Made by a program: the position numbers and the translations under genes. From an archaeon (GTDB lineage: Archaea > Iainarchaeota > Iainarchaeia > Iainarchaeales > GCA-2688035), in contig JBAZQI010000002.1 in assembly GCA_041645325.1 (NCBI GenBank), positions 8,850 through 72,849 of the forward strand: a stretch of DNA of 64,000 nt, in the 5' to 3' direction. Shown one piece after another: positions 12,579 through 63,040 of this stretch (position 1 is the stretch's first letter; every line of letters starts with the position of its first letter). Below the pieces are notes generated by a model that was not told the origin of the DNA, made no database searches, and was given only the letters and a program-made list of their open reading frames with translations.

Positions 12579-12709
12579 TCAAAGAGAATTTGCCTGGAAA
12601 AGGAATTTAAACCAGGTTGAAACCCAAAAACAGGTTCTCATCATCATGCACGATGATGTAATAGCAAAAAAACCGCAATCTTCCCAACCAAAAATAGGGG
12701 TGAAGGGCA

Positions 12710-12847
12710 TTACCGCCTGCAGCGCTTAGCGAAAGCAGTTTCGCTGTCAGACCTGGTAATGCCCCCTTTGCTTAGAGTCTTGCCTAGCTCAGATGCCTTT
12801 TCAGAACTAAGTTCAGCCACTTCAAAATGGCCTTCGTTTGTTCCCAT
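12710..12847 (-). other. Possible 45-codon small ORF whose 3' end and stop are embedded in a 10-bp perfect inverted repeat (GGGCATTACC...GGTAATGCCC)
   Basis: Reverse strand reads MGTNEGHFEVAELSSEKASELGKTLSKGGITRSDSETAFAKRCRR. There is a TTTATAGGGGG TATA-like element about 50 nt upstream. The stem-loop (12705-12766) could equally be a terminator or RNA element for the upstream FttA gene. Confidence 0.15.
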
Positions 12848-13215
12848 ATATGATCCCTTCGCAAAGCACAACTATTATGCGCAACCCCCTATAAATACTT
12901 TTCGGTAAACAAGCTCAAATTGGGCTTTTTTTTAAGTATCTTGAAAAAATTGGCTTTTGTTTCAAAAAAGAAGCCTGTATAAGGCTTATTTTTTATGTAT
13001 ACTTGCCTTTTTTTGAAATTTTTTTTTTAAAAAATTTTTGGCCAAAAATGGCGTTATGTAGAAAAGGCTTTAAAGGAAAGAATCTGTTTCTTTAGTAGAG
13101 AATGCGTACTTGCTTGTGGCCTATAAAGTTTATACATTGCCACTTTTTTTTGATGAAACTTTTTCCAAAAGTTTCTTGTGCTTAGTTTTAGCGTGTTGCC
13201 TGCAGAATAAGCCCT

Positions 13216-15843: not shown

Positions 15844-15929
15844 TCACTACCCACCAAAAAATCTAAGACAAACAGAACAGTTCTCTGAAAAACTTCTATA
15901 GGCAAATCTTTATAAAGCCTTTTCTTTTG

Positions 15930-16005
15930 CTACCGCAAAAGAAAAGCCTTGGGAAAAGAAAGCTTTTCGCTTCGCGAAAAGAGGCCTTAGGCAACTTTTT
16001 TCCAG
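15930..16005. repeat. Intergenic hairpin/repeat element containing AAAAGCCTTGGGAAAAGAAAG
   Basis: Motif copy at about 15942-15962, flanked by hairpins TGCTACCGCAAAAG and CTTTTCGCTTCGCGAAAAG. Lies between the FKBP 3' end and the psmB 5' end. Confidence 0.7.
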
Positions 16006-20460: not shown

Positions 20461-22302
20461 ATGAAGGGATCCATTTTTCTAATCGTGCTTGCGGTTGCAG
20501 CAATAGCGTTAAGCGGCTGCGTGCAACCCGCTGTTTGCGGAAATGGAATATGCGAAACAGGGGAAACACTGCAAAGCTGCCCGCAAGACTGCGGGCAACC
20601 GGCAGAATCGCATTTTGAGTGCTCAAGCCAGCAATGCATGCAAGTGCCAGGTGGAGGAACGGACGAATGTGTAACAAATGCGGAATGCATAACGCCAACG
20701 CACTTTGAATGCCAAAGCCAAGCATGCGTGCAAGTGACCGGCGCGGGAACAGACGAATGCACAGCAAACGCGGAATGCACAGCACCAACGCACACCGAAT
20801 GCCAAAACCAGCAATGCATTACAGTCAGCGGCGCTGGAACAAACCAATGCCAGGCAAACCAGGATTGCACAATAGCCTCAGTTTGCGGAAATGGCGCGGT
20901 TGAGCAAAATGAAGAGTGCGATGGCAATTTAATGTGCCAAGAAGGATACAACTGTGAAAGCTGCAAGTGTGTTGAAATGCCCGTTGCTTGTGGCAATGGG
21001 ATAATCCAGGAAGGAGAAGATTGTGATGTTGAGAATATATGTAGCGAAGGTTTTGAGTGCAAAGATTGCAAGTGTATAAAGAAGGAAGCTGTTTGCGGAA
21101 ATGGCCTGTGCGAGTACTTGGAAGACAAAACTAATTGCCAAGCCGATTGCGACAAGTGTATGGAAATCTATGACGGATACAATAATCCTTCGGCGAACAG
21201 AGCAAACATAATTTTTGCTGCTTTTGAGGTTGATTCAATAAAAGACAAAGCCAAGCAAGCTTTGGATTTGGACGAAAAAACATTGGGCTTGTTTTCGATA
21301 GAGCCCTTTAAAAGCAATAAAAACAAATTCAACTTTTGGTATGTTGACAAAAAATATGCCTCATCAAATGAAGCCTTGTCAGATGAAGCCAAAAAAGAAA
21401 TTGAAAGAATCTGCAATTACAGCAACACTTATTCTTATTATATTGCAAAAGACATAGACAACTTTATGCCCCTGGGAACAGCTGGACAGGGCCCTGGCAA
21501 TAAAGCCACAATTCGCTGGTACAAAGACGATCCAGATCCGCAAACTAATACCATAATAAGTACGGTCATTCATGAGTCAGGCCATTTAATAGGGCGATTA
21601 AAAGATGAATATGTGCTGGCGACAGGAAATGGCTCCATCTTTGATCAAGGCGAATACAAGCTTGACGAAAGTCTAGTCGAAAGAAACATATTCTTTGATT
21701 GGGAATCTTACAAAAATAATGGCAAAACAACAGAGGAAGAATGCCTGCAAAAAACCCATTGGAAAAGCCTTATCGGAAGTGGTTGCGGAAATCCTGCTGT
21801 TGTGGACTGCATTGAATGGCATTTAAAATGGGCTTTTGTGACAGATGAATCAGCAGCCCAAACATCATACGCCAAAATAGTTGGAGCTGATGTGAATTTT
21901 ACAATGCCTGAAAAGATTGACTCGCTTTCAGCAATTTACTACGGAGAAAACGCCTTGAAGATTACCAGCGCTTGCGAATCAAAAGATGGAAAAAACTGGT
22001 TTTGCTCGATATCAAATACTACAGCAGCCATTCTTAGCCTGATTGTGAATGGAGAACGAACCGAATTGAACTCCAACCTAAGACTGTCAGGCGGTGCTAT
22101 AAAATGCAAGGAAGGTATGCCTGACTGTATTATTGAAATTTCTTGCTTTGAGGGGGCACTCTACAAGCAGTACGATGTTTTTAGGCCAACATTTAACTCA
22201 ATAATGAATGAGCTTATAAATCGGCAGAGAGGGCAATATTCGTTTGGCAAAGTAAATGAACAGTTAATACAAAGCGAGTTAGACAAATACTCAAGCAGTT
22301 AA
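20461..22302 (+). CDS. Secreted lipoprotein: Cys-rich repeat modules fused to putative zinc metallopeptidase domain (HExxH...DEY, M64-like), paralogue 1
   Basis: Lipobox IALSGCVQP and the module VCGNGICETGETLQSCPQDCG. Three 26-aa HFEC..Q.C..V.G.GTDEC..N.EC repeats. Two CGNG....EECD/GEDCD repeats of the Myxococcus Cys-rich-repeat type. Catalytic-looking VIHESGHLIGRLKDEY. Confidence 0.6.
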   Translation: MKGSIFLIVLAVAAIALSGCVQPAVCGNGICETGETLQSCPQDCGQPAESHFECSSQQCMQVPGGGTDECVTNAECITPTHFECQSQACVQVTGAGTDECTANAECTAPTHTECQNQQCITVSGAGTNQCQANQDCTIASVCGNGAVEQNEECDGNLMCQEGYNCESCKCVEMPVACGNGIIQEGEDCDVENICSEGFECKDCKCIKKEAVCGNGLCEYLEDKTNCQADCDKCMEIYDGYNNPSANRANIIFAAFEVDSIKDKAKQALDLDEKTLGLFSIEPFKSNKNKFNFWYVDKKYASSNEALSDEAKKEIERICNYSNTYSYYIAKDIDNFMPLGTAGQGPGNKATIRWYKDDPDPQTNTIISTVIHESGHLIGRLKDEYVLATGNGSIFDQGEYKLDESLVERNIFFDWESYKNNGKTTEEECLQKTHWKSLIGSGCGNPAVVDCIEWHLKWAFVTDESAAQTSYAKIVGADVNFTMPEKIDSLSAIYYGENALKITSACESKDGKNWFCSISNTTAAILSLIVNGERTELNSNLRLSGGAIKCKEGMPDCIIEISCFEGALYKQYDVFRPTFNSIMNELINRQRGQYSFGKVNEQLIQSELDKYSSS

Positions 22303-22779: not shown

Positions 22780-23433
22780 ATGAAAAAGGACCTTGTGAGT
22801 TCCTTTGAACAGTTGCAGAAAATGCTTCCCCCTGGCCTTGCAATAGAAAACGAAGCCGCAAGGGTTGCTGCGCTCAAACATTACCTTTCAAAGGGCGGCG
22901 TAATACACATTGCTCCAAGCGAAAGCGGCTGGCCAAAATTGCTGTACCCCACAAAAGCCCATTTGAGGAAAAAAATCGACGAAACAAGGGCACTGCGCAC
23001 CCAGTATTACAGGCGCCTTGAAAGCTGGCAGCACAAGTTTGACGGCGCAAAAAGCTACCACCAGGTGCACAGCATAAAAAAGCTCAAAGAGCCATTGTAC
23101 TGGAAACACATGGCCAAATGCATGGTTGATGCAGACTACAGGTCAGACGCCGGCAAGGTAAATCTGCCTGTGCACCTTGTTGCCGACCCAAGGTGGAAGC
23201 CAATGGTCAAAACCTTTATCTCAGACCTGGACTACAGGAAACAGCTTGTTCAAACAGTTGACGAAAGCATTGTCTACAAAAACGACAAAAGGGTGGCGCA
23301 ATACGCAGACCTGCTCCAGGACTTCAGGATGGAACAAAGCAACCGCAAAATAGGTGAACTCAATCAAAAGCTTGCAGCCCTTGACGCGGACATAACCGCA
23401 ATGCAAGAACTCGCAAGATGGGCAAGCTTTTAG
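22780..23433 (+). CDS. Hypothetical protein
   Basis: 217-aa ORF with plausible coding periodicity. No motif recognised. Confidence 0.4.
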   Translation: MKKDLVSSFEQLQKMLPPGLAIENEAARVAALKHYLSKGGVIHIAPSESGWPKLLYPTKAHLRKKIDETRALRTQYYRRLESWQHKFDGAKSYHQVHSIKKLKEPLYWKHMAKCMVDADYRSDAGKVNLPVHLVADPRWKPMVKTFISDLDYRKQLVQTVDESIVYKNDKRVAQYADLLQDFRMEQSNRKIGELNQKLAALDADITAMQELARWASF

Positions 23434-23700
23434 AAGCCTTTCTTTCTAAAAGCCTTTTAATAAAAGGCTTGCGAAAAACGATGGCGAAAAATGCTTCGCG
23501 AGAAAGAAAGCCTCCTGGCAAAACCATTGGTTTTGAAAGGCCCAGCAAAGCTGCAGCTTTGCCGGGTGGGAAAGAAAGCTTTTTGCTTCGCAAAAAGAAG
23601 CCTTTTTTTCTGCTGAAAAACCTTAGAGATGCTTTAGCATCTCTTACGGTTTCTGAACCTTATAGGTTCAGAAAAAGCCTTGGGAAAAAATGCGCTAATT
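23434..23700. repeat. Intergenic repeat cluster: hairpins plus second copy of the ~70-bp double-hairpin module and the AAAAGCCTTGGGAAAA motif
   Basis: 23617-23690 (AAAAACCTTAGAGATGCTTTAGCATCTCTTACGGTTTCTGAACCTTATAGGTTCAGAAAAAGCCTTGGGAAAA) is about 95% identical to 10693-10768. Additional hairpins include AGCCTTTTAATAAAAGGCT and CTTTTTGCTTCGCAAAAAG. Confidence 0.8.
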
Positions 23701-29329: not shown

Positions 29330-31447
29330 ATGGACGCGGAAAAGCAGGCGCTTGAATTAAGCGGCATTGAATCCTTCAACCCGATGCAGGTTGCCGCGCT
29401 TAAAAAAAACTGGCGCGGCAAAAGCCTTGTGGTTTCAGCCCCGACGGCTTCCGGAAAAACCCTTCTTGCGGAAATAGCTTCCATTGATTCTATTGCCAAC
29501 AGGCAGCAAAAGGTGATTTACACAGGGCCTTTGAGGGCGCTTGCCTCGGAACACTTTTCTGAATTCAAAAAAAAGTACTCAAAGGAATTGAAAATAAGGG
29601 CCGCCCTGAGCACAGGCGACCTTGACGGCAGCAGCTCCCATCTTCAGAATTACGACATCATTTTTTCAACTTTTGAAAAACTGGACAGCCTTCAGAGGCA
29701 TAAGGCGAACTGGCTTGGGGCAGTAGGGCTTCTTGTCATTGATGAGGTTCATTCCCTCGGAAGTGACAGGGGCCCGACAATAGAGGTTGCGGTTACAAAG
29801 CTCAGAATGCTCAATCCTGGGCTGAGGGTGCTTGCCCTGAGCGCAACCATTCCGAATGCGCACGAGCTTTCGGACTGGCTTGAGGCAGAGCTTATTGAAA
29901 GCGATTACAGGCCTGTGCCGCTTGAAGAAGGCATTTTTTTCAACGGCAAGGTGCATTATGCTTCAGGGCAAAGCGAATCCTTTGGCCTGAAAGAGCCGAT
30001 AAAGGCGCTTGTAAAGGACACGGTTTTTGCCAAGGGAAAGCAGGCGCTTGTTTTTGCAAACACGAGGAAAAATGCGGAAAGCATTGCCATAAAGCTAGCC
30101 CCTTTTGTTGAAAAGGCATTGCGGGAAAAGGAGAAAAATGAACTGAAAAAGGAAAGCGATTCATTGCTTGGCATTCTTGAGCAGCCCACCGAGCAGTGCA
30201 GAAAGCTTTCCTCGCTTGTTGCAAGCGGCGTTGCGTTCCACCATGCAGGCCTTCTTTCGGGCCAGCGCACCCTGATTGAGAACGCGTTCCGCTCGAACAA
30301 AATCAAGGTTATTGCCGCAACGCCAACACTTGCGGCCGGGGTAAATTTGCCGAGCCATACTGTGATAATTCCTTCGCTTTACCGCTACACCGCAGGGGGA
30401 ATGGCAAGAATTCCTGTTTCGGAATTCAAGCAGCAAATTGGAAGGGCAGGCAGGCCAAAATATGACAAGGAGGGCAGGGGAATTGTTGTGGCAAGGTGCG
30501 AGGCTGAAAAGGACGAGCTTTTTGAGGAATACATTTGCGGCAAGGTGGAGCCTGTTGAGTCAAGGCTTGGCGTTGAGCCTGTGCTGAGAATGCATGTGCT
30601 TGCCCTGGTGGCAAGCGGCTTTGTTTTTGATTTGGCAAGCATGGGCGATTTTTTCAAAAAAACGCTGTATGCAAAGCAATTCAGCAACATGCAGGCGCTG
30701 TTTGAAAAGCTGCAATCTGTTTTGCAGCAGCTTGTAGAAATGGGCTTTATTGAAGCAAATGAAAAGCGCATTTCGGCAACAGTTTTGGGGCAAAGGGTGA
30801 GCGAGCTTTACCTTGACCCTCAAAGCGCCTTTGAAATGATAAGCGCGATGAAGGCAAGCGCAAAATTCACGCCTTTTTCATACCTTTTCATTTTGTGCAA
30901 CTGCTCGGAAATGATGCCCTGGCTTTCGGTTCCAAAGGCAAAGGAGCCGGAATTGTGGGAGCAGTTGCAGCTCTCCAAGCCGCAGATGCCGATTGACCTT
31001 GATAGGGAAATGTACTTTGACCTGAATCTTTTGAAAAAATTCAACACGGCTGAAATGCTTGAAAAATGGATTGACGAATCCTTTGAACAATCCATAATGG
31101 AAGACTTCAAGACCCAGCCAGGCATTCTCCACTCAAAGCTAAGCATCTGCGACTGGCTGTGCTATTCTTCCCTTGAAATTGCAAAGCTTTTGTCTTTGGA
31201 AAATCACTTCTTGCCATTGTCAAGGCTGAGGAAAAGGCTCAAGTATGGCGTCAGGGAAGAGCTTTTGCCGCTTACCAACGTAAGGCATATCGGAAGGGTG
31301 AGGGCAAGAAAACTGTGGAGAAGCAACATAAGAAGCGTTGCAGAGCTCAAAAATGCTGATTTGAAGGACCTTGGCAGGATTCTCGGGCCTGCTGTTGCTG
31401 AAAAGGTCAAAAGCGCATTGGGGCAAAGACTTATTCCATTAAACTGA
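29330..31447 (+). CDS. hel308: Hel308/Hjm-type Ski2-like DNA helicase
   Basis: Walker A APTASGKT, DEAH-like VIDEVH, motif VI QQIGRAGRP, and winged-helix plus C-terminal HhH regions. Start set at MDAEKQALELSGIESFNPMQ. Confidence 0.85.
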   Translation: MDAEKQALELSGIESFNPMQVAALKKNWRGKSLVVSAPTASGKTLLAEIASIDSIANRQQKVIYTGPLRALASEHFSEFKKKYSKELKIRAALSTGDLDGSSSHLQNYDIIFSTFEKLDSLQRHKANWLGAVGLLVIDEVHSLGSDRGPTIEVAVTKLRMLNPGLRVLALSATIPNAHELSDWLEAELIESDYRPVPLEEGIFFNGKVHYASGQSESFGLKEPIKALVKDTVFAKGKQALVFANTRKNAESIAIKLAPFVEKALREKEKNELKKESDSLLGILEQPTEQCRKLSSLVASGVAFHHAGLLSGQRTLIENAFRSNKIKVIAATPTLAAGVNLPSHTVIIPSLYRYTAGGMARIPVSEFKQQIGRAGRPKYDKEGRGIVVARCEAEKDELFEEYICGKVEPVESRLGVEPVLRMHVLALVASGFVFDLASMGDFFKKTLYAKQFSNMQALFEKLQSVLQQLVEMGFIEANEKRISATVLGQRVSELYLDPQSAFEMISAMKASAKFTPFSYLFILCNCSEMMPWLSVPKAKEPELWEQLQLSKPQMPIDLDREMYFDLNLLKKFNTAEMLEKWIDESFEQSIMEDFKTQPGILHSKLSICDWLCYSSLEIAKLLSLENHFLPLSRLRKRLKYGVREELLPLTNVRHIGRVRARKLWRSNIRSVAELKNADLKDLGRILGPAVAEKVKSALGQRLIPLN

Positions 31448-31467
31448 GCCGTTTTTGCTCAAGGCAC

Positions 31468-31728
31468 TTTTCCCAAGGCTTTTTCTGAAGGAAAAAGGCT
31501 TAGCAACGCATCAGCGTTGCTGTTTTCCCAAGGCTTTTTCCGAAGGAAAAAGGCTTAGCAACGCATCAGCGTTGCTGTTTTCCCAAGGCTTTTTTCAACA
31601 GAAAAAAGGCTTTGCGCGAAGCGCATTTTTCCCAAGGCTTTTTCTGAAGGAAAAAGGCTTAGCAACGCATCAGCGTTGCTGTTTTCCCAAGGCTTTTTGC
31701 CAACAGGCAAAAAGGCTTCTGCACAAAA
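31468..31728. repeat. Tandem array of five ~46-57-bp units, each TTTTCCCAAGG + A/U hairpin + GC hairpin (AGCAACGCATCAGCGTTGCT) + GTTTT
   Basis: Units start at about 31468, 31523, 31578, 31626 and 31683. Units 1, 2 and 4 are near-identical; 3 and 5 have variant hairpins (TGCGCGAAGCGCA; CTTTTTGCCAACAGGCAAAAAG). Contains the reverse complement of the dispersed AAAAGCCTTGGGAAAA motif. Confidence 0.85.
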
Positions 31729-31808
31729 TTTATTAATAATGAAAGTATTCTATTAGTGTGCATATTCTATTAGTGTGCAAACCACAGCGTCAGGGAGCGT
31801 TTTTTTGA

Positions 31809-34800
31809 ATGGATAACCCTTTGAACAGCATAGTTGAGTCTTTCAAGAAAGGCTACTATTTCCTTGAAGACCGCTACTATATGCTTTTGGACAAGGTAAA
31901 CGGGCATGTTCCAATCTACAAGGCAATTGACCCTGTGGACCGTGTGTTTCCCTCCTTTGTGCTGCTGATTGCCGTACTGGCCTGCCTTGCAATTCTCCTG
32001 ACTTTTACGCTCTTGCCGCAGGTTTCACTGTCTGCAACACTGCGCGTGCTTGACGAAAACAACAACCCGCTGGAGGGCGCGCACATCTCGGTTTCATTCA
32101 ACGACGAGTCAATAGGCCTTGACACCGACGATTTCGGCGAAGCAAAGCTTGCGTTGCCGCAAAGCGGGGTTGAAGCCGCAATACTCGTGTCAAAGGACGG
32201 TTTTGACAGGCTAAGCCAGACCATAACACTGAAAACAAACGACCTTGTTGACCTTCTTCTCAGCAGGACAAAAGCCTCCTTTCAAGCCACCAAATCCACA
32301 ATATACGTTGTCGACTCAAGAACAAACAGGCTGATTAAGGGACAGGTGCACCTTGAATTCACCTGCTCAACCGGCACCCCAGCCCCTGCGCCTCTATCTG
32401 GCGCAACAGGCGAATTCAAGGACATGGCGGTTTCAGGTGAATGCGGCACGCTTCTTGCAAAGGCCATGGCTGAAGGATACGAGCCAAAGGCAAGCGTTGC
32501 CATAACAAGGAATCCAACCTACCTAAAGCTTGACCCTCTTGACCCTGTTGAAACAACAACCGGAATAAACGTGATTGTAAGGGACCATGCCGGAAACGCG
32601 GTGCAGGGCGCAATAGTCAAGGCCTTCGGCGGCGGCAACGTGCTGGTGCAGCAGCTTTCAACCGACACAAGCGGCACAGTCTCAATCCAGGGCATTGAAC
32701 CCGGCATTTACTCGGTTACCGCAAGCCATTCCGACGGAAGGTATGCCGAAAAAACCGGCGTAGAAGCCCTTATAGGCACGCCCGCAACTGTCACGCTTTC
32801 CTTCGCACAGCCGGCCACAGGCGACGGAGAGAAAATATCCATGCACTTCACCGATGCGGTAACAAACGCAAGCATCCCGAACGCAACAGTCCTGATTTAC
32901 GCAAACAACCTGCTCTTTGATTCAAAAACAAGTGATTCCTCAGGCCTAATAGAAAAGGCGGTTGACGGCAACAACTCGTCATTCATTGCCGTGGCATCAC
33001 ACGACAATTATGTAACAAGAATAATCACAAACGTGGCGGTAATGGACGCATCCAGCAAAACCCCGCAGGCAATAAAGCTCACGCCACTCGCATCCGACGG
33101 CTCAAACAGCGGCAAGGTAAGCATCTTTGTTTCCGACTATGAAACAAAAAAGCCGGTTGAGGGCGCACAGGTATTCCTCTACAGCGCGGACTATCCCGAA
33201 ATAATACTCGATTATCCCTACGCGCTCACAAACGCGGACGGCAACATGCTTATTTCAAGGCTGCCTGAAGGCTCTTACTTTGTAAAGGTAAAAAAGTCCA
33301 ATACCGAGGGAACAAGCGAAACAGGCAAACTTGTAGCTGGTGCAACCCTGGGCTTTTCCATTATGCTTATTACAACTGAAGGCAAGGTCAAGGCTGAGGT
33401 TGTTGACAAAAAAACAGGCAGTCCGATACAGGGCGCTGAAATAACCTTTACTGACTACGCCACTGATTCCGTGCTCCAAAGCGGCTTTTCTGACGCGCAG
33501 GGAAAGCTTGAATCACAGCCCTTCAAGTCAAACAAGACCGTTTACGTGAAAGCCGTAGCCGCAGGATACTTCTCTGCAACAAGCATGCCGCTTCCCATAG
33601 TGTCAAAAAGCGCGCAAAGCGTCAGGCTGGAACTTGACTCAAAAAGCGATATAAGCCTTGACCAGAATATGGCAATCAAATTCGAGGGCTTTTACGCCGA
33701 CAAGGCCCTGAAGCAGAAGGCAACAACCCTCGAATCAGGCGAAACAGGCCAGCTCTACTATTATATCAAATTCACGGTGCTTACCGCAAAAGACGCAAAC
33801 TACTCGAATATTATGCACCACATAAGGCTCGATTCAGAGGAAAAAGGCAAAAGCCCGGAAAAACTGCCTACCCCGACAGGATACACCGCAAGGCTTCTTA
33901 ACTACGCCGCAAGCTCGCCCTACTCATCGACAATCTTCAGCGCATGCTACAATCCTGAAAATGTATTCTCAAGCCCGGAGGCCTGCATAACAGACCTTGT
34001 CGCAAAACAGGCAAACACGCTTTGGGCAACAGCCTCAAGGCAAACAGCTTACACCCTTGTGCTTAAAATGGAAATCGAGCAAAACCTTGAGGACGGCACG
34101 GAAATAGAGCTGCGCTACCAGGGCAAAGCCATAATGAACAATTCCGAATTCATGACACAGCCATTCCTGCAGACCTTCAGAATAGGCGAGCCAATCTGCT
34201 CGCCACCCGACTGCCCTGCAGCCATAATGCGCTTCTGGCTCCAGGATTCAAACGGCAACAAGGCAATCCTCCAAAGCTTTTCGGGCGAAAGCGATTACAC
34301 GACCGGGCAGGAAACCGAGCTTGCAAGCTATTCCAATTACAAGCTGTTCTACGAGGTCCGCAACACAAGCGGTGTGGAACTGACAGCAACACTGAAGCTT
34401 GAAAACGCTGACCCCCCCAATGTGGTTTCAATACAGGGCGAAAACATTCAAACCGCATTTTCAGGGCTGCAAATTGCCGCCCACACTGTTGCCTCACAGG
34501 GCTCGCCTGTGCAGCTGAAAACAGGTAGTGAAGCCGCATTCACTAAAATCAAGGCCTCTTTTACTTCAACACAGGGCAAGGCCATGGAACAATTCATCCC
34601 GTTCACGGTAACAGCCGCAAAAGAGCTCACACTGGCGGTTTCGCCCTCGGTGCTAATACCAAACGATGGCAGCCAGATTTTAAGCGGCTATGTTAAGTCA
34701 AGTGATGGCACCCCGGTTCAGGGCGCCTCAATAAGCATCTTCCTGCCTGGCAACACGCTGTTCGAATCGCTTGTTTCCGGCGAAACAGGGGCTTTCTCCT

Positions 34801-36317
34801 CAACAAGGAACTTCAGGCTGCAGCCCAACGAAAAGGTCAGCTTGGTGGCAACAGCGCCGGGCTACAAGAAGACAACTGTTGAGGTGCCGGTAAATTTCGG
34901 CGACTACTTTGACCCAAGGTACAACTGCATAGAGGTTCCCTCACTTGGAGAAGACGTCCGCACATTCAAGGACACAAGGCCGGGCGGCAAGGGCCTGTTT
35001 GAAGTTGTCAACAACTGCGAAACGCCTGTTGAAATAATGTTCAACAGCAAGCTCAAAGTTGAGCCGAAGCAAATGCAGATTCCGGCCGGTGCAAGCGCGC
35101 AGGCAACATTTACCGCAGACAATCCCGAGGGAGGCGAACAGGTTTACCTCGGGCAATACCCGATTTACGTCAAGGCAAAAATGCAGGGCGACGTGCGCTT
35201 TGTGAACGCAGTGAAAGTGCTTGTGATTATTTCAGACCCTGTGGGAAGCTGCTTTGCAATTGACAAGACAAGCTTTAATCTTCTGGACAGCAACATGGAC
35301 AGCGGCGAAATAACAAATGATTGCGCTGTCCAGTTCAACGACGCATGGGCCCCTGAGCTTGCCCTTGACTCCTTCAAGGCGATAATTAGAAGGGATGATG
35401 TGCAGATTCCGGACATGTTCCCCTTCGAATGGGGCGTGAGGGCAGAACTGAGCCTTTCAACGCCTGTAAGGGTTGAATTTGAGGAAAAAAGGGAAAACAC
35501 ATGGAACGATTTTTACATTCCCACAGGGGCTGATACAGGCCCTGATCATACCATAAACAAAAGCATAACGGTTAACGTGGGAGAAAGCATGGAAGACATA
35601 ACCGCCCTGAAATTTGATTCGATAATTATCCCTATTTTGCCAATAGACTTGTCCGGTGTTATTGACTACGGTTCCATTGCATATGTAGCAAGCGCGAACA
35701 TTTACGTTGACGGCATTCCGGTGCCGGTGCCTGAATGCGGCTTAAGTGGCTGCACCTGGGAAGAAAGCGGCAAGACAAATGATGCGGCAAAATGCCATTA
35801 CATCGCAGCATCGTGCTATTACAACTCGTTTGAAGTCCAGCTTCAACGTGACTCAATAGGCTCAATCACGTTCCCAATATACAACTCAGAAAACAGGGCT
35901 TTCCTGTTTTTCTCGCTAAACGGCACGCTCATTGAAACATCATACGGCTTTGACGTAAACCACACTCAATTTGAGCTTGAGTTTGGGCCCCCGCCCACAA
36001 ATCTTTTCCGCTCAACAATAGTTCCTGTCAGGGGCCTGGGCTTTGCGCTTGGAAAAATTGACCTCTCGCTGGCAAACAAGCTTGGCGAAGGGCTCTATTC
36101 GGTTGACGATGCAAACATCACAGCATACAGCAACAGCCCAGAAGTTGAAGTATGGCTTGTTGACAACGTCATATATGGAAAATATGTGGGCAATGATGCA
36201 GCAGATGATGACCAAGGGGCTACGCCTTTTACGATAAAGGACCTTTATCTCGACACAACCCAGTATAATTTAATTTACGTTGACGATTATGTAAACGAAC
36301 TGAGGCCTGCCAAATGA
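31809..36317 (+). CDS. Giant (1502 aa) type-II membrane-anchored surface protein with multiple carboxypeptidase-regulatory-like/Ig-like beta-sandwich repeats
   Basis: 40-aa cytoplasmic N-terminus then TM FVLLIAVLACLAILLTFTLL. At least six ~80-aa repeats of the CarboxypepD_reg type (for example GINVIVRDHAGNAVQGAIVKAF...TDTSGTVSIQGIEPGIYSVTAS). The C-terminal 700 aa carry no recognised motif. Confidence 0.6.
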   Translation: MDNPLNSIVESFKKGYYFLEDRYYMLLDKVNGHVPIYKAIDPVDRVFPSFVLLIAVLACLAILLTFTLLPQVSLSATLRVLDENNNPLEGAHISVSFNDESIGLDTDDFGEAKLALPQSGVEAAILVSKDGFDRLSQTITLKTNDLVDLLLSRTKASFQATKSTIYVVDSRTNRLIKGQVHLEFTCSTGTPAPAPLSGATGEFKDMAVSGECGTLLAKAMAEGYEPKASVAITRNPTYLKLDPLDPVETTTGINVIVRDHAGNAVQGAIVKAFGGGNVLVQQLSTDTSGTVSIQGIEPGIYSVTASHSDGRYAEKTGVEALIGTPATVTLSFAQPATGDGEKISMHFTDAVTNASIPNATVLIYANNLLFDSKTSDSSGLIEKAVDGNNSSFIAVASHDNYVTRIITNVAVMDASSKTPQAIKLTPLASDGSNSGKVSIFVSDYETKKPVEGAQVFLYSADYPEIILDYPYALTNADGNMLISRLPEGSYFVKVKKSNTEGTSETGKLVAGATLGFSIMLITTEGKVKAEVVDKKTGSPIQGAEITFTDYATDSVLQSGFSDAQGKLESQPFKSNKTVYVKAVAAGYFSATSMPLPIVSKSAQSVRLELDSKSDISLDQNMAIKFEGFYADKALKQKATTLESGETGQLYYYIKFTVLTAKDANYSNIMHHIRLDSEEKGKSPEKLPTPTGYTARLLNYAASSPYSSTIFSACYNPENVFSSPEACITDLVAKQANTLWATASRQTAYTLVLKMEIEQNLEDGTEIELRYQGKAIMNNSEFMTQPFLQTFRIGEPICSPPDCPAAIMRFWLQDSNGNKAILQSFSGESDYTTGQETELASYSNYKLFYEVRNTSGVELTATLKLENADPPNVVSIQGENIQTAFSGLQIAAHTVASQGSPVQLKTGSEAAFTKIKASFTSTQGKAMEQFIPFTVTAAKELTLAVSPSVLIPNDGSQILSGYVKSSDGTPVQGASISIFLPGNTLFESLVSGETGAFSSTRNFRLQPNEKVSLVATAPGYKKTTVEVPVNFGDYFDPRYNCIEVPSLGEDVRTFKDTRPGGKGLFEVVNNCETPVEIMFNSKLKVEPKQMQIPAGASAQATFTADNPEGGEQVYLGQYPIYVKAKMQGDVRFVNAVKVLVIISDPVGSCFAIDKTSFNLLDSNMDSGEITNDCAVQFNDAWAPELALDSFKAIIRRDDVQIPDMFPFEWGVRAELSLSTPVRVEFEEKRENTWNDFYIPTGADTGPDHTINKSITVNVGESMEDITALKFDSIIIPILPIDLSGVIDYGSIAYVASANIYVDGIPVPVPECGLSGCTWEESGKTNDAAKCHYIAASCYYNSFEVQLQRDSIGSITFPIYNSENRAFLFFSLNGTLIETSYGFDVNHTQFELEFGPPPTNLFRSTIVPVRGLGFALGKIDLSLANKLGEGLYSVDDANITAYSNSPEVEVWLVDNVIYGKYVGNDAADDDQGATPFTIKDLYLDTTQYNLIYVDDYVNELRPAK

Positions 36318-41906: not shown

Positions 41907-43130
41907 TTGATTGAGCAAAGCTTGCATGAAAACATTTTCCAGAAACAGCTTGAAAAAAACACGGTTTTCACGGACAGAAACACAATAACCCCGCACTACA
42001 CGCCAAGCAATCTCCCATTCAGGGAAAAGCAGATAGAGGAAATCTCGCAATTGCTTTCGGTTGCATTGCACGGCGCAAAGCCGGACAATCTTTTCATCTA
42101 CGGCAAGGTCGGCACAGGCAAGACAGTAACCGTAAACCATGTGCTTTTGCAGTTAAACGATTTCATAGCCCACAATGCCAACAAAAGCGTTGACTTTGCC
42201 TACGTCAACTGCAGGAACCATAACACAAAATACAAGGTTTTGCTCAAGGCGCTTTCAAAATTCTTTCCGGAAGAAGACTTCATAGGATACAGCTCTGCCT
42301 TTGTCTACGAAAAAATGCTCAAGCACGCGGAATCCGGAAAGCAGGTGATAATCGTGCTTGATGAAATAGACAAGGTCAAGGACCTTGACGAGCTAATCTA
42401 CGCGCTCACAAGGTCAAACGACGAGCTGCAAAAAGGCGGCATTGCGGTGATAGGAATAAGCAACAACCTTTTCTTCAAGGACAAGCTTGACGTGAGGACA
42501 AAAAGCACGCTGCTGCAGAGGGAAATGGTTTTTCCGCCATACAATGCGGAAGAGCTCAGGGCAATCCTGCAGGCGCGCATTAAAACCGCGTTCAAGCCAA
42601 GTGCGGTTGAGGATAGCGCCATTAACCTTGCCGCCGCAATTGCGGCACAGGAATCAGGGGACGCTAGGGCAGCGGTAATGCTCATGCTCAGGGCAGGCGA
42701 AGAGGCTGACCGCTCCCTGCTAAGGGTTGTGAAAGAAGAACATGTAAGGCTTGCAAGGACGCGCGTTGAAGAAGAGGTTACCTTGAACATGGTGGAAACC
42801 CTGCCAAAGCAGCAGCAACTGGTGCTCTACGCCTTGTCCTTGATGACTGCGCAGGGCAAGGGCTATGGAAAGCTCATGGGCGGCAAGGAAGAAGGCGTCT
42901 TTTTTTCAGGCGACGCCTACAGGGAATACGAGCGCATTGCCGCCTCAATGCAGGAACAGGTTGTCTCAAGCCGATGGTTCAGGGAATACGTAAACGAGCT
43001 TGAAACCTACGGCCTGATTTTGACAACAGCTTCAGGCAAGGGCATAAGAGGCACAACAACGCTGATAAAGCTCGGCTTTGACGCAAAAAAACTCAAGCAG
43101 GCGCTGGAAAAAGAACTGATGTGCGCATAG
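41907..43130 (+). CDS. cdc6: Orc1/Cdc6 replication initiator
   Basis: Walker A IYGKVGTGKT, Walker B IIVLDEID, sensor motifs, and a C-terminal winged helix. 407 aa. Confidence 0.9.
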   Translation: MIEQSLHENIFQKQLEKNTVFTDRNTITPHYTPSNLPFREKQIEEISQLLSVALHGAKPDNLFIYGKVGTGKTVTVNHVLLQLNDFIAHNANKSVDFAYVNCRNHNTKYKVLLKALSKFFPEEDFIGYSSAFVYEKMLKHAESGKQVIIVLDEIDKVKDLDELIYALTRSNDELQKGGIAVIGISNNLFFKDKLDVRTKSTLLQREMVFPPYNAEELRAILQARIKTAFKPSAVEDSAINLAAAIAAQESGDARAAVMLMLRAGEEADRSLLRVVKEEHVRLARTRVEEEVTLNMVETLPKQQQLVLYALSLMTAQGKGYGKLMGGKEEGVFFSGDAYREYERIAASMQEQVVSSRWFREYVNELETYGLILTTASGKGIRGTTTLIKLGFDAKKLKQALEKELMCA

Positions 43131-43141
43131 TTGATTCTCCC

Positions 43142-46100
43142 CTAAACAAATTCAGCCAGCTTTTTTTGCTCCGGCTGCTCGTTTTTGAACACGCTGTTTA
43201 TTTCCTGGTCTATCAAATCGAGCCTTTGCCTTAAGTATGCGCTCAGGTCGAATTCCCTTGCCAAGTTTTTTGCAATCTCAAGGTATTTTCGAACGCCGCC
43301 CTCGTTTACCGTGAGGATGATTTTTTCCTGCGCGCACTTTGGGCATTTTCCATCAAGGGGAATGCGCCTGATTTTTGCGTTGCAGTTCGTGCACCTGAAT
43401 TTTTGCCTGCTGAACGCCCTTGTGTTGCCGATGATGTCAGGCAAAAGGTGCGTCACCATCACCCTTTCCAGGGCATCCTTGCTGTCCACAGCCCTTATTT
43501 TCCCCTGCAGCTTTGCCTGTGCCCTGATTTTTTCCTCCATTGTATTCAACTGCACATACCTTGAAGTTGTGGGGCCTGCGTCAAACTGCGTTGTCTCATG
43601 TGAATAGCCAAAACCAGAGTACTGCCCTTCTTTTCCCACAATGTGCTCTATCCTTCTGATGCCTTCAACGTCCGCAGGCGCCATTTTTTGCGCGTTCTCG
43701 TACAATTCAAGAGGGTAATCCCAGTTTGTTTCCATGTCATAGCATTCGTTGTCTATTTCCGTCGGCTTTAATGCAACTGTAAAGACAAGCGATGCGTCCA
43801 TTCTGCCGCCCCTGCTTCCCGGAAGATAGCTGTGGGAAAAGTTCAGGATGTTGTCCATAAGGAGCATGAGGCTGTCCTGGTCCCCGTCAACATTCCTTCT
43901 TTTTGTCTGATGGAAATAAGGGTGGGCAAAGCACGCCCTTGCTTTTGTGAAACCAATGAGCCTGCCAACAATCGCGGCAGAGGTGTGCGGCGCCAGGCCA
44001 AGCAAGAGCTGGCCGACAAGGTCCTCTTTTTTCTGCGCGTTGAAATACGGCCCAAGCTTGTAAAACCTTGCAAGCAACTCATCAACGAATTTTGAGACCT
44101 TCACAAAAAAGTCCCCCGCTGTGTCGTTTATCACAATGTCCTGCGGGAACAGCTCAACAACCTGGCCTGCGTCAACAAGTTCTTTCCCAAAAGTGTCCTT
44201 TTCATAGCCAAGCTCTCTTGCCTTTTCAACGCTTAATCCGATTTCTTTCGGCTTGAAGTGCGTCAATGGCGCGTCAATCGCCTCGTACCTTATTGTTGCG
44301 TCCCTGAAAACATGCAAATCATATTTTGCCCTGAGTATCCCTTTTTCCAGGGGCTCTGCCGACTTGCCTGTGTTAATCATTCCCTTTACGCCCTTAACAA
44401 TATCCGGAATTCTCACCCCGAGGTTTTCGGCCGCCTGCCTCATTGTTTCCTGCAAATCAATGCTTCTCTTGCTGAACGCCTCTGTTTCGAAACCGCACTT
44501 GCCGCATTTTTTTTCCTTGGTAAGGGCGCCGCAGTTCGGGCACATGCTTGTTTTTTCCGTTCGCTCATTGCATTTCCTGCAGTAAGGCTGTTCCCTTATT
44601 GCGCCGCACTTTGGGCAGCTGTAAAGCGCAATCTCAACAATGACAGAGCCCTCTTTTCCCTCGCCGGTGCCCGCCATTGCCTTGTTTATTGACCTGATGT
44701 TTCCTCCCGCCGCGCCTATCGGAAAAAGCATATGCGGGCTGCCCGCCATTTTCCTCGGCTTGCTTGCCTCAGGCCTTCCCATCCTTGCCCCAATCCAGGT
44801 TCCGGCCTTGTCCCTTATCTGCATGCCTGATGCAAGGTTCAGCGCAGAAATGACATCTTCGGCCTTTTCAACCGCCTCTTCAAGCCTTCCAATGCCATTG
44901 CCAAGCCCAAGGGTTTTTTTCACGGCATTGAACATTCCCTCTTCAATAAAAATTTTTCCCTCTTTTACCTCGTGGCACAGGCCTATTTTTTCCAAAAGAC
45001 CTTTTCCAGCATCGTCTTTCTCAAGCGCAATTGCATTCCCTTCCTTTTCGCCTTTTTCCAAAAACCTTGCAAGTAGCAAAAGCTCTTTTTTTTCAACGCC
45101 CTTGTAATAACAAAGCGCATTTGGATGCAATGGCAAATTGTATTTTTCCGCAAGCTCAATCGCCTGTTCCGGCGCAACATTCAAGGGCTCTTTCAAAATT
45201 TTTTCAATTTCTTTTGCCTTTTCCCCAAGCTGCCTTTCGGCTTCCTTTGCCCACCATTCCTCACAATAGCCGGCAGGCACAAGGGGATGCGCGCTGTACC
45301 TGAAATCGCCGATGCTTATCAGCAAATCCCCGAGGAAAAGTATTTCTTCAACCCTCGGCTTTATTTTAATGGCCTCTTCCAGCGTGTTTACCTTCACAAC
45401 ACTGCCGCTGAAAAGTTTCACAATAGGGCCCTCAATGCTGTCAACAGGCGCCATTTCCGCGGCCTTCCCGGGCCTTTCAACCTTCATCTGCGTGGCATTT
45501 GCAATAAATCCATCAAGAATGTGCATGGTAGCAGGATGTATGCCCTTGCCCATTATTCCCGTGTTCCTTGCCCTGCCATACCTCAGCCTGAAGCCCCCGA
45601 ACCTCATGGGATAGGCAAGAATAGGCCTGCCTGCGGCAGCCCCAATCAAAAACTTTTCATTTGGCCTGAGCTTTTTGTCGCCTGAATCAACCTTGCCGAC
45701 CTTTATTATGTCCTCAAGCCAGTTCCACTCAAGGCCGAGCTTTTTTGAAAATCGCAAAATCTTTGCCGCTTTTAATGCAACGCCTTCGCTTAGCACAAGG
45801 CACATTCCCCCCCTTACCCTGTTGTTTGGAATCCTTGGCAAATCCCTGTTCACAGAAACCTCGCGTTCCTCGGTCGGCTCGCCGTTGATGCACACATTGC
45901 AGTTCCTCACAATCTTCCTTACCTCGTCGTCTGTGGGCTTGTACTGCCTTGTAACAATCTCGTCGTAAATCTGGCATTCCTCAACATACCTTTCAACCTC
46001 GTCATCGGTTGGCTTGTACTTGTCAAGCTCAAGAAGCTTTCTTGCGTAATCCCCAAGAATGAGCGGCAAAACCTGGCTTGTTCCGCCGGCCGCCCTGATA

Positions 46101-46633
46101 GGCCCTGCATAGTAAATGTCAATGAACCTGCTTCCATCAGGATTCCTGTTTATTTCAACCTTTGGCACGCCATCCAGCGGCGCGACAACAACGCCTTCGG
46201 TGTTCAAAACCAAAGCAGTCTTAATCGCCTGCTCAACCCTTTTTCCCTCATCCTCTATCTTGCACCATTCCTGCTCGATGATTTCGCGGAAAAGCTGAAA
46301 AATGGCTTCAAGCCTGTCCCCCTTTTTTTCCTCAAAAACTTCCCTGTACCTTTTCGCTATCCCGACAGGCCCTATGATTGTTTCTGTCCTGTCCGCAAGG
46401 TCTGCCACCGGCTTTGACTCTATAGCCGTGCTTAAATCAAAGCCTTTTTCCTTTGCCTTTTCGGCAACCGAAAGCTGTTTTTCAACCTCGGCAATAATGC
46501 CCTGATAATATTTTTTTATCGCAGGCGTTCCCTCAACCTCTATCTCAAGCTTCATGCCCATTCCCTTCCCCTGTTTGCCCAGGCATTTCCCGCTTCCATC
46601 CCTGGCTTCATTTTCATTCCTCTTTTTCCACAA
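43142..46633 (-). CDS. polC: DNA polymerase II (PolD) large subunit DP2
   Basis: 1163 aa with Cys clusters CPKCG...CRKC and CPNCG...CGKCG. Length and architecture typical of DP2, with no intein. The likely true start is MGMKLEIEVEG (about 46561), which removes the overlap with DP1. Confidence 0.9.
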   Translation of the reverse strand: MWKKRNENEARDGSGKCLGKQGKGMGMKLEIEVEGTPAIKKYYQGIIAEVEKQLSVAEKAKEKGFDLSTAIESKPVADLADRTETIIGPVGIAKRYREVFEEKKGDRLEAIFQLFREIIEQEWCKIEDEGKRVEQAIKTALVLNTEGVVVAPLDGVPKVEINRNPDGSRFIDIYYAGPIRAAGGTSQVLPLILGDYARKLLELDKYKPTDDEVERYVEECQIYDEIVTRQYKPTDDEVRKIVRNCNVCINGEPTEEREVSVNRDLPRIPNNRVRGGMCLVLSEGVALKAAKILRFSKKLGLEWNWLEDIIKVGKVDSGDKKLRPNEKFLIGAAAGRPILAYPMRFGGFRLRYGRARNTGIMGKGIHPATMHILDGFIANATQMKVERPGKAAEMAPVDSIEGPIVKLFSGSVVKVNTLEEAIKIKPRVEEILFLGDLLISIGDFRYSAHPLVPAGYCEEWWAKEAERQLGEKAKEIEKILKEPLNVAPEQAIELAEKYNLPLHPNALCYYKGVEKKELLLLARFLEKGEKEGNAIALEKDDAGKGLLEKIGLCHEVKEGKIFIEEGMFNAVKKTLGLGNGIGRLEEAVEKAEDVISALNLASGMQIRDKAGTWIGARMGRPEASKPRKMAGSPHMLFPIGAAGGNIRSINKAMAGTGEGKEGSVIVEIALYSCPKCGAIREQPYCRKCNERTEKTSMCPNCGALTKEKKCGKCGFETEAFSKRSIDLQETMRQAAENLGVRIPDIVKGVKGMINTGKSAEPLEKGILRAKYDLHVFRDATIRYEAIDAPLTHFKPKEIGLSVEKARELGYEKDTFGKELVDAGQVVELFPQDIVINDTAGDFFVKVSKFVDELLARFYKLGPYFNAQKKEDLVGQLLLGLAPHTSAAIVGRLIGFTKARACFAHPYFHQTKRRNVDGDQDSLMLLMDNILNFSHSYLPGSRGGRMDASLVFTVALKPTEIDNECYDMETNWDYPLELYENAQKMAPADVEGIRRIEHIVGKEGQYSGFGYSHETTQFDAGPTTSRYVQLNTMEEKIRAQAKLQGKIRAVDSKDALERVMVTHLLPDIIGNTRAFSRQKFRCTNCNAKIRRIPLDGKCPKCAQEKIILTVNEGGVRKYLEIAKNLAREFDLSAYLRQRLDLIDQEINSVFKNEQPEQKKLAEFV

Positions 46634-62885: not shown

Positions 62886-63040
62886 AAGCCTTTTTGCCTC
62901 ACGGCAAAAAGCCTTGGGAAAGAAAGAAGCCTTTTTTGCTTGGGCAAAAAAGCCTTGGGAAAACCAAAACATAGAAAAGCAAAAGCTTTTCGTGCCTCGT
63001 ACCCTGCAGGGTACTCGGTCGCTGTTGCGATTTTAAGCCT
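62886..63040. repeat. Intergenic repeat cluster: two copies of the AAAAGCCTTGGGAAA motif, hairpins, and palindrome CCTCGTACCCTGCAGGGTACTCGG
   Basis: Motif copies at about 62906-62926 and 62947-62964. Hairpin TTTTGCCTCACGGCAAAA. The 62995-63018 palindrome matches 10813-10836. Lies between convergent 3' ends. Confidence 0.8.

Follow-up and report, generated by a model that had tools for sequence, protein, structure and literature searches.

A tandem hairpin array downstream of hel308 in an Iainarchaeota genome, probably a local cluster of a dispersed DPANN repeat

Between hel308 and a gene for a large surface protein, an Iainarchaeota/Diapherotrites metagenome-assembled genome (MAG), whose Hel308 homologues are labelled Diapherotrites or Iainarchaeum, carries a tandem array of hairpin-forming units. 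We analysed this array within a 64,000-nt stretch of contig JBAZQI010000002.1 (the window), and we find that it probably arrived recently, was amplified in place and consists of copies of a dispersed, non-autonomous hairpin repeat native to DPANN archaea, comparable to repetitive extragenic palindromes (REPs), bacterial interspersed mosaic elements (BIMEs), BOX elements and MITEs (miniature inverted-repeat transposable elements). The evidence comes from the anatomy of the array, the empty sites of close relatives, the dispersal of its unit within the window and across genomes, the covariation of its stems and the presence of the same module in tRNA and rRNA introns. Any termination of transcription at the array would be incidental to a dispensable element and not the work of a conserved device.

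Anatomy of the array

Direct reading of the sequence from 31200 to 32000, together with Tandem Repeats Finder, delimited a tandem repeat at 31468-31718 with a period of 55 nt, 4.6 copies and a score of 347, and a second-order period of 104 nt (94% matches) over 31523-31718. There are five units of 55, 55, 49, 55 and 37 nt, all arranged head-to-tail (Table 1). A module, about 50-55 nt long, starts with the invariant, single-stranded linker TTTTCCCAAGG, which is followed by hairpin A (AAGGCTTTTT, a variable self-complementary interior and AAAAAGGCTT) and then by a GC-rich hairpin B, AGCAACGC-ATCA-GCGTTGCT in units 1, 2 and 4. Units 1 and 4 are the same sequence, unit 2 is off by one loop base, and the stems of units 3 and 5 differ from those of the other units, each remaining internally complementary. 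Hairpin A has an unchanging base, AAGGCTTT...AAAGGCTT, and an interior that varies while staying self-complementary; a single G.G mismatch at the base of the stem is constant because AAGGCTT is a direct repeat around the palindromic core. Exact copy number rests on a single short-read metagenome assembly (ENA ERZ27249422, k141_404798), whose contig name implies an assembly k-mer of 141; the longest repeat inside the array is 81 nt.

A first-pass annotation, made from the sequence alone, had already reported a tandem array of five head-to-tail hairpin units, the near-identity of units 1, 2 and 4 and the variant self-complementary stems of units 3 and 5. All of this is borne out, with the qualification that the fifth unit consists of hairpin A only, and so is the expected folding, which is far better than that of shuffled sequences whichever strand is folded (z -6.9 for + and -4.6 for -). 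Its end for the array, 31728, has to be corrected to 31718, positions 31719-31728 (CTGCACAAAA) being ancestral flank outside the array. It had also stated that this is not a CRISPR array, and we agree: there are no unique spacers, the would-be spacers are 13-21-nt palindromes of which three are identical, and the window encodes no cas domains. A coding repeat was likewise rejected, the 93-amino-acid open reading frame (ORF) across the array (31455-31736) being spurious, with units of 55 and 49 nt that are not multiples of 3 and relatives without the array. The suggestion of a small-RNA array found no support, as there is no promoter for it and no match in Rfam 15 at the gathering threshold (the best permissive match reached 24 bits against a threshold of 249). 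No tRNA or rRNA was found in the window.

Empty sites in close relatives

Three independent assemblies (L098, L132 and L133) fall in the same 90%-identity Hel308 cluster as the window, with a Hel308 that is 96% identical in L098, and none of them has the array. We read the junctions between filled and empty sites by eye, since a global MAFFT alignment put the gap in the wrong place. In the three assemblies the site reads TGA GCCGCTTTTGCCCA CTGCAC AAAATTTATTAATAA, so that the T-run of hel308 directly meets a promoter-like box, whereas in the window it reads TGA GCCGTTTTTGCTCA AGGCAC, then the 251-nt array, then CTGCAC AAAATTTATTAATAA. The more distant L099-L101 (72-74% identity) also go without the array, keeping CTGCAC and/or the TTTATTAATA box as well as the motif TATTCTATTA. 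The order hel308 followed by the surface-protein gene is kept in relatives. Since both close relatives and outgroups have no array, parsimony places its insertion in the lineage of the window. The array is therefore a recent insertion with local amplification; it is dispensable and, being absent from close relatives at a site where hel308 already has its own T5 (31452-31456, 5' of the array), it cannot count as a conserved insulator for the giant-protein operon that follows.

The sole junction signature is a repeat of 4-6 nt, GCAC (AGGCAC / CTGCAC), around the insert at this one site, junctions elsewhere not being alignable; it may be a 4-6-bp target-site duplication or chance. As a separate observation, L100, a relative at 72% identity, has the sequence CTCTTTTTTTCCCAAAAGCAGG right after hel308 (8110-8135), a T-run with a CCCAA word like the head of the module, which may be a relic or a native sequence that the module mimicked.

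Dispersal within the window

The first-pass annotation had called one motif of the units genome-dispersed, and this proved correct within the window, where the 16-mer TTTTCCCAAGGCTTTT occurs 12 times at no more than 2 mismatches against 0.41 expected, a count reached in 0 of 100 shuffles. The module lies at four further gene-end spacers, and the repeat loci are mosaics that share further small hairpin modules (Table 1). At the spacer between the FKBP and proteasome beta genes, the GGCTT end of hairpin A continues into the TATA box TTTATAAAG. The module is found in only about 5 of the window's roughly 45 spacers and therefore is not a general terminator or promoter of this genome.

These loci are also polymorphic. 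The FKBP/proteasome spacer and the convergent spacer between the genes for 407- and 1007-amino-acid proteins are element-free in relatives at 70-87% identity, and the SdpI/DnaJ spacer contains, among relatives at 88-100% identity, one unit (L130, L131), two units (the window and L128) or two different units (L129). Taken with the array, three loci are empty in relatives and one varies in unit number, a presence/absence polymorphism of the kind expected of MITEs.

Two further roles were considered for the words of the repeat and rejected. AAGGCTT does not behave as a DNA-uptake-like word, occurring 46 times outside the repeat loci against 39 expected from 6-mers, i.e. without excess. Neither is the hairpin a mimic of promoters, which in this host are (G/C)CTTTAAAT or TTTATAAA; GGCTTTTTC differs from them, and TATA-like hairpin centres are a minority in other genomes.

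Distribution across DPANN archaea

We scanned one genome per prokaryotic species (596 Gb) with the pattern TTTCCCAAGGCTTT-N5-35-AAAGGCTT, whose 22 specified bases lead to an expectation of about 2 chance matches. The scan returned at least 97 loci, nearly all in DPANN MAGs and mostly in Iainarchaeota. Counts over genomes in this and the next two sections refer to the matches listed. Other loci among these come from records titled Aenigmatarchaeota, Woesearchaeota, Nanoarchaeia/Nanobdellati and Micrarchaeota, and the few bacterial records seem to owe their presence to mis-binning or to coding sequences that match by chance. Many loci have hairpin B upstream and tandem units with a period of about 42-55 nt (for example L002, L046, L097, L024 and L029), and a minimal form of the module, TTTCCCAAGGCTTTT-NNN-AAAAGGCTT, is found in Woese- and Nanoarchaeota. 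With respect to protein genes, 8 copies are co-directional, 7 antisense, 6 convergent and 5 divergent, which on crude ORF calls amounts to no bias. Cases that seemed to lie inside long ORFs were set aside: most of them are produced by ORF extension or are bacterial coding sequences that match by chance.

When 1293 ORFs from the 97 loci listed were clustered all-against-all, housekeeping families alone emerged and no mobilising enzyme. Our literature searches, in a limited library, retrieved no description of this DPANN repeat family; it may be the first REP/BIME/BOX/MITE-like family documented for DPANN, a novelty that is unproven beyond the literature searched.

Covariation of the hairpins

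Hairpin A varies in the sequence of its interior and is constant in its pairing. Its 120 instances comprise 103 distinct interiors, 85 of which are uninterrupted palindromes closing to a loop of at most 8 nt, against 17 in shuffles. We aligned 25 distinct 36-nt copies without gaps for a covariation test, in which the outer 14+8 columns are fixed by the search pattern and hence uninformative. Pairing was kept in 99.7% of cells, 5 of 12 pairs covaried and double-sided changes numbered 34 against 6.7 in shuffles, a signal that collapsed in slid controls. Of 116 flanks, 82 have a hairpin B no more than 34 nt upstream, with loops that are strand-asymmetric (C-GAA-G 15, C-AAA-G 8, C-GCA-G 4 and C-AGA-G 3), and the complementary loops were not seen. 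The word GCGAAGC is an unusually stable DNA mini-hairpin, and its occurrence in hairpin-B loops is a lead and not a result.

The first-pass annotation had taken the preservation of pairing despite sequence change as a sign of selection on structure. The pairing is confirmed in more than 100 copies, but selection on RNA structure does not follow from it alone, because intra-strand template switching or copy replacement can also keep palindromes perfect. In L129, a relative at 90% identity, the first, orthologous hairpin of the SdpI/DnaJ spacer has a wholly different stem (ACGC/GCGT against GCC/GGC), while only 3 of 34 positions differ in the coding flank beside it. This contrast in rates points to copy replacement or concerted change of the palindrome rather than to slow compensatory substitution, and it weakens the case for RNA-structure selection as the sole reading of the covariation. 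The same annotation had regarded its view as lost if the unit were unique to this locus and structurally unconserved in relatives; the unit is widespread and structurally conserved, yet this particular array is not conserved.

The module in tRNA and rRNA introns

Using ARAGORN with intron search on the listed DPANN loci, we found the reverse complement of the unit at the very 5' start of 12 tRNA introns, in the form AAGCC, hairpin A and GCCTTGGGAAA, often followed by hairpin B. The tRNAs concerned were called as Leu, Ser, Pro, Ala and Gly; the 100-nt intron of tRNA-Leu(CAA) in L026, for instance, starts with AAGCCTTTCTTTGCCTTGCAAAGAAAGCCTTGGGAAAGAAACAATTTGCTTTGCAAATTG. The 12 copies, which correspond to roughly 6-7 tRNA species and not to 12 independent events, have a single orientation, and 4 of the 5 copies that flank tRNA 3' ends are in the same one. 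Bystander tRNAs outside the search pattern (tRNA-Arg, -Thr and -Ser; L013, L022, L059, L073 and L077) also have introns that begin with a diverged module, e.g. ACAGCTTTTCTTTAGAAAAGAAAGGCTGGCGAAAA, suggesting that this module family dominates tRNA introns in these Iainarchaeota. Moreover, the module lies inside the 16S rRNA gene of an Aenigmatarchaeota MAG (L063, 2328-3292, - strand), where the Rfam match comprises 680 model positions in 965 nt. This gene contains about 285 nt of insertions, and one insert of about 95 nt opens with the module, after ...GTGCCGTGT.

On inspection, the UUGGG that follows hairpin A could pair with anticodon-loop positions 32-35 (YUYR). In the introns examined, however, it is not the UUGGG of the module but a separate segment, specific to the anticodon and situated at the 3' end of the intron, that forms the 3' strand of the splice motif. 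We also tried to draw a bulge-helix-bulge, with its two 3-nt bulges on either side of a 4-bp helix, around intergenic units and at the SdpI stop codon, and rejected it as the pairing fails.

In Thermoproteales, similar sequences occur in the introns of different tRNA species, implying spread between genes (Fujishima et al. 2010, cited in PMC4033280). The DPANN module is like these transposed introns, as PMC4033280 summarizes them, in that an intron sequence is common to different tRNA species within a lineage; it differs from them in lineage and sequence and in being abundant intergenically as well, no intergenic counterpart being mentioned in the summary of that work in PMC4033280. A bolder proposal would make the module a mobile building block of DPANN bulge-helix-bulge introns, i.e. 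a cross-phylum, non-autonomous hairpin cassette with the constant ends AAGCC...GCCUUGGGAAA that would seed or extend such introns in tRNA and rRNA genes, and for which intergenic single copies and arrays like this one would be a reservoir. We hold this to be rather improbable. If true, a dispersed repeat family would drive archaeal intron gain, and its spread would be traceable by presence/absence polymorphisms.

Termination at the array

The minimal terminator that aCPSF1 (also named FttA) binds in Methanococcus maripaludis is a pair of U4-tracts within about 18 nt, and more tracts lead to a higher efficacy (PMC8716108). The array conforms to this pattern. On the hel308 strand every unit reads TTTT-CCCAAGGC-TTTTT(T), which gives two U-tracts of at least 4 within 17 nt, tract follows tract from unit to unit, and T-runs of at least 4 number 11 on the + strand, between 31452 and 31698, compared with 6 on the - strand. 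FttA/aCPSF1 is encoded in the window (13216-15108, - strand). Given these T-runs, the presence of FttA and the rules of archaeal termination, it is likely that RNA polymerase leaving hel308 does not get through the array, by the action of FttA/aCPSF1.

That termination is the reason for the existence of the array is doubtful, because close relatives do without the array, which comes after a native T5, and the downstream gene has a conserved putative promoter of its own, and also because across DPANN loci the module shows no orientation bias in relation to protein genes and its intron copies no depletion of T-runs (T-runs of at least 5 in 3 of 12 intron copies and 36 of 92 copies elsewhere, p = 0.53, i.e. 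no significant depletion). Known archaeal terminators have no conserved non-U sequence, need no hairpin and are positionally conserved with their genes (PMC8716108). The array is not: it is missing from L098, L132, L133 and L099-L101, in which only the native T-run is kept. With bacterial Rho-independent terminators the units share a GC-rich hairpin B followed by a T-run, but the host is an archaeon, the run after hairpin B is no longer than T4 on the + strand, where a bacterial terminator would have a U-tract of at least 5-8 (the T5-T6 runs are the 5' arm of hairpin A), and of the five sites flagged by a scan for the bacterial consensus one is on the + strand and four on the - strand. The first-pass annotation described the shape of an intrinsic terminator, a bacterial logic that is misplaced in an archaeon, where U-tracts and FttA/aCPSF1 are the signal. 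The unit does have two closely spaced U-tracts, and termination is a plausible effect.

Relation to known repeats and mode of spread

Like REPs and BIMEs, which are short (20-55 nt) intergenic palindromes in high copy that form composite arrays at gene ends, are noncoding and have been proposed to play side roles in termination or mRNA stability (PMC2817692, PMC3733652), the DPANN units are short, multi-copy, extragenic imperfect palindromes. REPs, however, have conserved stems, a GTAG/CGTC head, alternating orientation and a link to REP-associated tyrosine transposases (RAYTs) (PMC2817692, PMC3733652). The DPANN family has no such head, its arrays are strictly head-to-tail, its flanks are invariant and its stem interior is free, its hosts are archaea and it also resides inside tRNA and rRNA introns. 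No RAYT (IS200/IS605-like Y1 transposase) was present among the approximately 45 ORFs of the window that we scanned against Pfam, and no recurrent family was present near the at least 97 loci.

BOX elements of Streptococcus pneumoniae are modular (boxA-boxB(n)-boxC), consist of intergenic hairpin modules, have no transposase of their own and vary in copy number between strains. The DPANN family is likewise a mosaic of short hairpin modules of which one is tandemly repeated; unlike BOX, whose modules are sequence-conserved, it has an unrelated sequence, belongs to another domain of life and has no established fixed A-B-C order. With MITEs and the palindromic elements derived from archaeal IS200/IS605 it shares non-autonomy, presence/absence polymorphism, insertion in spacers and possibly a short duplication, but it has no convincing terminal inverted repeats, its units are far smaller, tandem amplification dominates and no parent insertion sequence (IS) or TnpA/TnpB was found in the window or the listed loci. 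Amplified MITE-like units were among the options that the first-pass annotation had offered, and this option fits best, because the unit is a dispersed, multi-genome repeat with a clean presence/absence polymorphism at the locus. A non-autonomous element is consistent with there being no transposase in the window or recurrently near the at least 97 loci.

We propose that new copies would land in the few non-essential bases at gene ends, namely in stop-to-promoter and convergent stop-to-stop spacers, and also in tRNA 3' flanks and in the interiors of tRNA and rRNA introns. Once in place they could multiply through recombination, slipped-strand or unequal, at the 17-25 identical nt that the unit junctions have in common, and at the array 55-nt duplications would have come first and 104-nt duplications next. 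The insertion lies exactly between the hel308 T-run and the conserved putative promoter of the next gene, and it enlarged the spacer from about 100 nt to 361 nt.

Several observations weigh against this explanation. In the window and the listed loci there is no mobilising enzyme, there are no unambiguous terminal inverted repeats and there is no consistent target-site duplication; the ends of the inserted block (..AAGGCTTTTT / AAAAAGGCTT..) match as inverted repeats at 9 of 12 positions, which are simply the arms of hairpin A, and the ends of the full unit (TTTTCCC... and ...GCTG) are not inverted repeats. A cognate autonomous IS whose ends match was found neither in the window nor in the listed loci nor in collections of viral contigs, plasmids and phages, and these collections hold no copy of the module either. 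Flanks of 14+8 nt that are identical across archaeal phyla are unusual for a neutral repeat, and imply a conserved trans-acting partner or frequent horizontal transfer. The strong covariation of hairpin A and the strand asymmetry of hairpin B, in which the triloop type makes up 30 of 82 hairpins, could mark a selected function outside the proposed explanation. Finally, each of the five loci in the window has upstream of it a gene transcribed in the TTTCCC direction, an arrangement that fits a role in termination too.

Alternative explanations

We consider it unlikely that the array is a selected multi-copy terminator or insulator, whose double U-tracts, read by RNA polymerase with FttA/aCPSF1 and perhaps aided by the hairpins, would shield the highly regulated surface-protein gene against read-through out of hel308. 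In the invariant core, UUUU-CCCAAGGC-UUUUU, the two U-tracts correspond to the minimal aCPSF1-binding terminator of M. maripaludis (PMC8716108), T-runs are more numerous on the + strand of the array than on the - strand, FttA is encoded in the window, the five window loci are all at gene 3' ends with the upstream gene in the TTTCCC direction, and 12 of 12 tRNA-intron copies avoid that orientation. Yet the relatives L098, L132 and L133 and the outgroups do without the array and retain the T-run and the promoter, few spacers of the window are equipped with the module, neither an orientation bias in DPANN nor shorter T-runs in introns could be detected, and a terminator role leaves the invariance of CCCAAGGC and GGCTT unexplained. 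An element acting as RNA, of intron type or otherwise processed, cut by the tRNA-splicing endonuclease or another RNase and maybe circularised, would make the array a multi-copy gene or reservoir read from the minus strand, in the AAGCC sense that the introns show. In its favour, 12 tRNA introns have the reverse complement of the unit as their 5' part and a 16S rRNA gene contains it too, without exception in one orientation, variants of it open the introns of bystander tRNAs, and a pairing of UUGGG with anticodon-loop positions 32-35 is possible, like that in the central helix of a bulge-helix-bulge. We nevertheless judge this very improbable for the array, which on inspection admits no bulge-helix-bulge, since the 4 nt ahead of each AAGCC are not complementary to UGGG; there is no promoter-like TATA box towards the minus strand, no tRNA or rRNA in the window and no Rfam match, and real introns use a separate anticodon-specific 3' segment instead of the UUGGG of the module.

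Sites at the DNA level, bound by a protein or formed as single-strand hairpins, such as recognition sites of a recombinase, an HUH enzyme or a chromatin protein, would turn the array into a binding cluster; in favour of this are the AAGGCTT direct repeat around each palindrome, the invariant flanks and the strand-asymmetric hairpin-B loops, among which C-GAA-G (including GCGAAGC), C-GCA-G and C-AAA-G dominate. The chance of this is likewise very small, as no candidate protein was found nearby, the triloop type is confined to a minority of hairpins B, the three dominant hairpins B of the array itself have the loop ATCA, and no orientation pattern exists relative to the putative origin near cdc6. 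An assembly artefact or mis-joined repeat is barely credible. The assembly is a short-read metagenome and contigs of family members L024, L046 and L089 end inside arrays, but the internal repeats of at most 81 nt are shorter than the k-mer of 141, diagnostic positions distinguish the units, three independent assemblies match the flanks base for base, and comparable arrays recur in many independent assemblies.

In the small, compact genomes of DPANN archaea a modular hairpin repeat is tolerated, or used, whose stems drift and remain strictly complementary. Identical flanks across phyla, free but strictly paired stems and residence in tRNA and rRNA introns make the family unusual. Its presence in tRNA introns and a 16S gene ties intergenic repeats to the question of how archaeal introns are gained and spread, and the invariant double U-tract core offers a natural test object for archaeal termination.

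Genomic context and additional observations

The window, part of a 104-kb contig, is ordinary chromosome, encoding PolD, Cdc6/Orc1, FttA/aCPSF1, proteasome beta, an aminoacyl-tRNA synthetase, ribosomal proteins and SecDF, and no transposase or cas gene was detected among its approximately 45 Pfam-scanned ORFs. Hel308 has the Pfam domains DEAD, Helicase_C, Helicase_dom4_arc and HHH_5, and its ATG start at 29330 agrees with the deposited 705-amino-acid protein MFA4855113.1. The box AAAATTTATTAATAA would be the promoter of the surface-protein gene, judging by its BRE/TATA-like sequence (TFB-recognition element and TATA box) and its conservation (Table 1).

Table 1. Coordinates of the array, its flanks and the other repeat loci of the window
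Feature	Position	Strand	Description
hel308	29330-31447	+	Upstream gene, archaeal Hel308/Ski2-type helicase; TGA stop at 31445-31447
Native T-run GCCGTTTTTGC	31448-31458	+	Directly 3' of the hel308 stop; ancestral terminator-like signal; GCCGCTTTTGC in array-free L098, L132 and L133
Left junction AAGGCAC	31461-31467	+	GCAC (31464-31467) recurs at the right junction CTGCAC; empty sites of L098/L132/L133 read ...TTTTGCCCA CTGCAC AAAATTT
Unit 1	31468-31522	+	55 nt; linker TTTTCCCAAGG; hairpin A 31475-31501, loop CTGAAGG; hairpin B 31502-31521, AGCAACGC-ATCA-GCGTTGCT
Unit 2	31523-31577	+	55 nt; hairpin A 31530-31556, loop CCGAAGG; hairpin B 31557-31576
Unit 3	31578-31626	+	49 nt; hairpin A 31585-31612, CTTTTTTC-AACA-GAAAAAAG
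Unit 3, hairpin B	31613-31625	+	TGCGC-GAA-GCGCA; includes the mini-hairpin word GCGAAGC
Unit 4	31627-31681	+	55 nt; same sequence as unit 1; hairpin A 31634-31660; hairpin B 31661-31680
Unit 5	31682-31718	+	37 nt; truncated, linker and hairpin A 31689-31718 (CTTTTTGCC-AACA-GGCAAAAAG), without hairpin B
Right junction CTGCAC	31719-31724	+	Ancestral; same in L098/L132 and in outgroup L100
Putative promoter box AAAATTTATTAATAA	31725-31739	+	BRE/TATA-like; kept in L098, L099, L100, L101, L132 and L133 at equal distance to the ATG
17-bp perfect tandem duplication, TATTCTATTAGTGTGCA x2	31746-31779	+	Leader/operator region; outside the repeat family; Tandem Repeats Finder
Downstream gene	31809-36317	+	1502-amino-acid CarboxypepD_reg/Ig-like repeat protein (Pfam); first gene of the 'giant protein' cluster
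Convergent gene ends (407/1007 amino acids)	10634-10764	-	Hairpin-A unit 10634-10670; variant unit fused to module Q 10697-10764; spacer empty in L107 and L109
FKBP to proteasome beta	15915-15985	-	Hairpin B CTTTTCGC-GAA-GCGAAAAG, then TTTTCCCAAGG, then hairpin A; absent from L104-L110
Composite locus	23434-23700	-	Several degenerate or variant units and module Q; begins at the stop codon of gene 22780-23433
SdpI/DnaJ convergent spacer	62886-62963	-	Pair of tandem units; the SdpI stop codon borders directly on the first

The 17-bp duplication TATTCTATTAGTGTGCA, which stands between the TATA-like box and the ATG of the 1502-amino-acid gene, is confined to the lineage of the window, relatives carrying a single copy that contains TATTCTATTA; the region is a candidate operator or transcription start site region. 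Several relatives (P0016, P0031, P0035, P0046, P0080, P0082 and P0102) have a Hel308 of about 1170-1225 amino acids with intein/LAGLIDADG domains (PF14528, PF14890), which are not present in the Hel308 of the window.

Among the small modules of the repeat loci, a 51-nt double hairpin, CTGAACCTATAAGGTTCAG...AGAGATGCnAAAGCATCTCT, recurs at 10697-10747 and 23621-23671 (- strand) fused to heads of the TTTCCCAAGG type, and a second module of about 49 nt surrounds the palindrome GTACCCTGCAGGGTAC at 10817-10832 and 62999-63014. The latter is inserted in the SdpI/DnaJ spacer of the window and absent from the orthologous spacer of L130/L131. Inverted repeats of 16-18 bp, AGTTTTAGCGCCCTCTTG and CAAGAGGGCTAAAACT (63068-63085 and 63229-63244), bracket about 145 nt between the repeat units and DnaJ; this arrangement, which is kept in L130 and replaced in L129 by a 252-amino-acid gene, resembles a MITE or an RNA processing stem. 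The ORF after SdpI (63044-63895, + strand) is spurious; deposited calls place DnaJ at 63281-63976 on the - strand, so that the spacer 62886-63280 is convergent, and DnaK and GrpE follow past the end of the window.

Elsewhere in the window, the 637 nt after FttA/aCPSF1 (12579-13215) have no long ORF and contain AAAGGCTTTAAAGG-like promoter words, which makes a small gene or noncoding RNA possible. Cdc6/Orc1 (41907-43130), with a 296-nt upstream spacer (from 41611), adjoins PolD DP2/DP1 (43142-48125, - strand) in a candidate replication origin region. A HicA-toxin/DUF7387 gene pair lies at about 57570-58005 (- strand, gene calls of the source contig, L127 5339-5774), and a coding tandem repeat of 90 nt x 2.9 with 75% identity occupies 20609-20872 in a 613-amino-acid ORF (20461-22302) with a weak Peptidase_M64 match.

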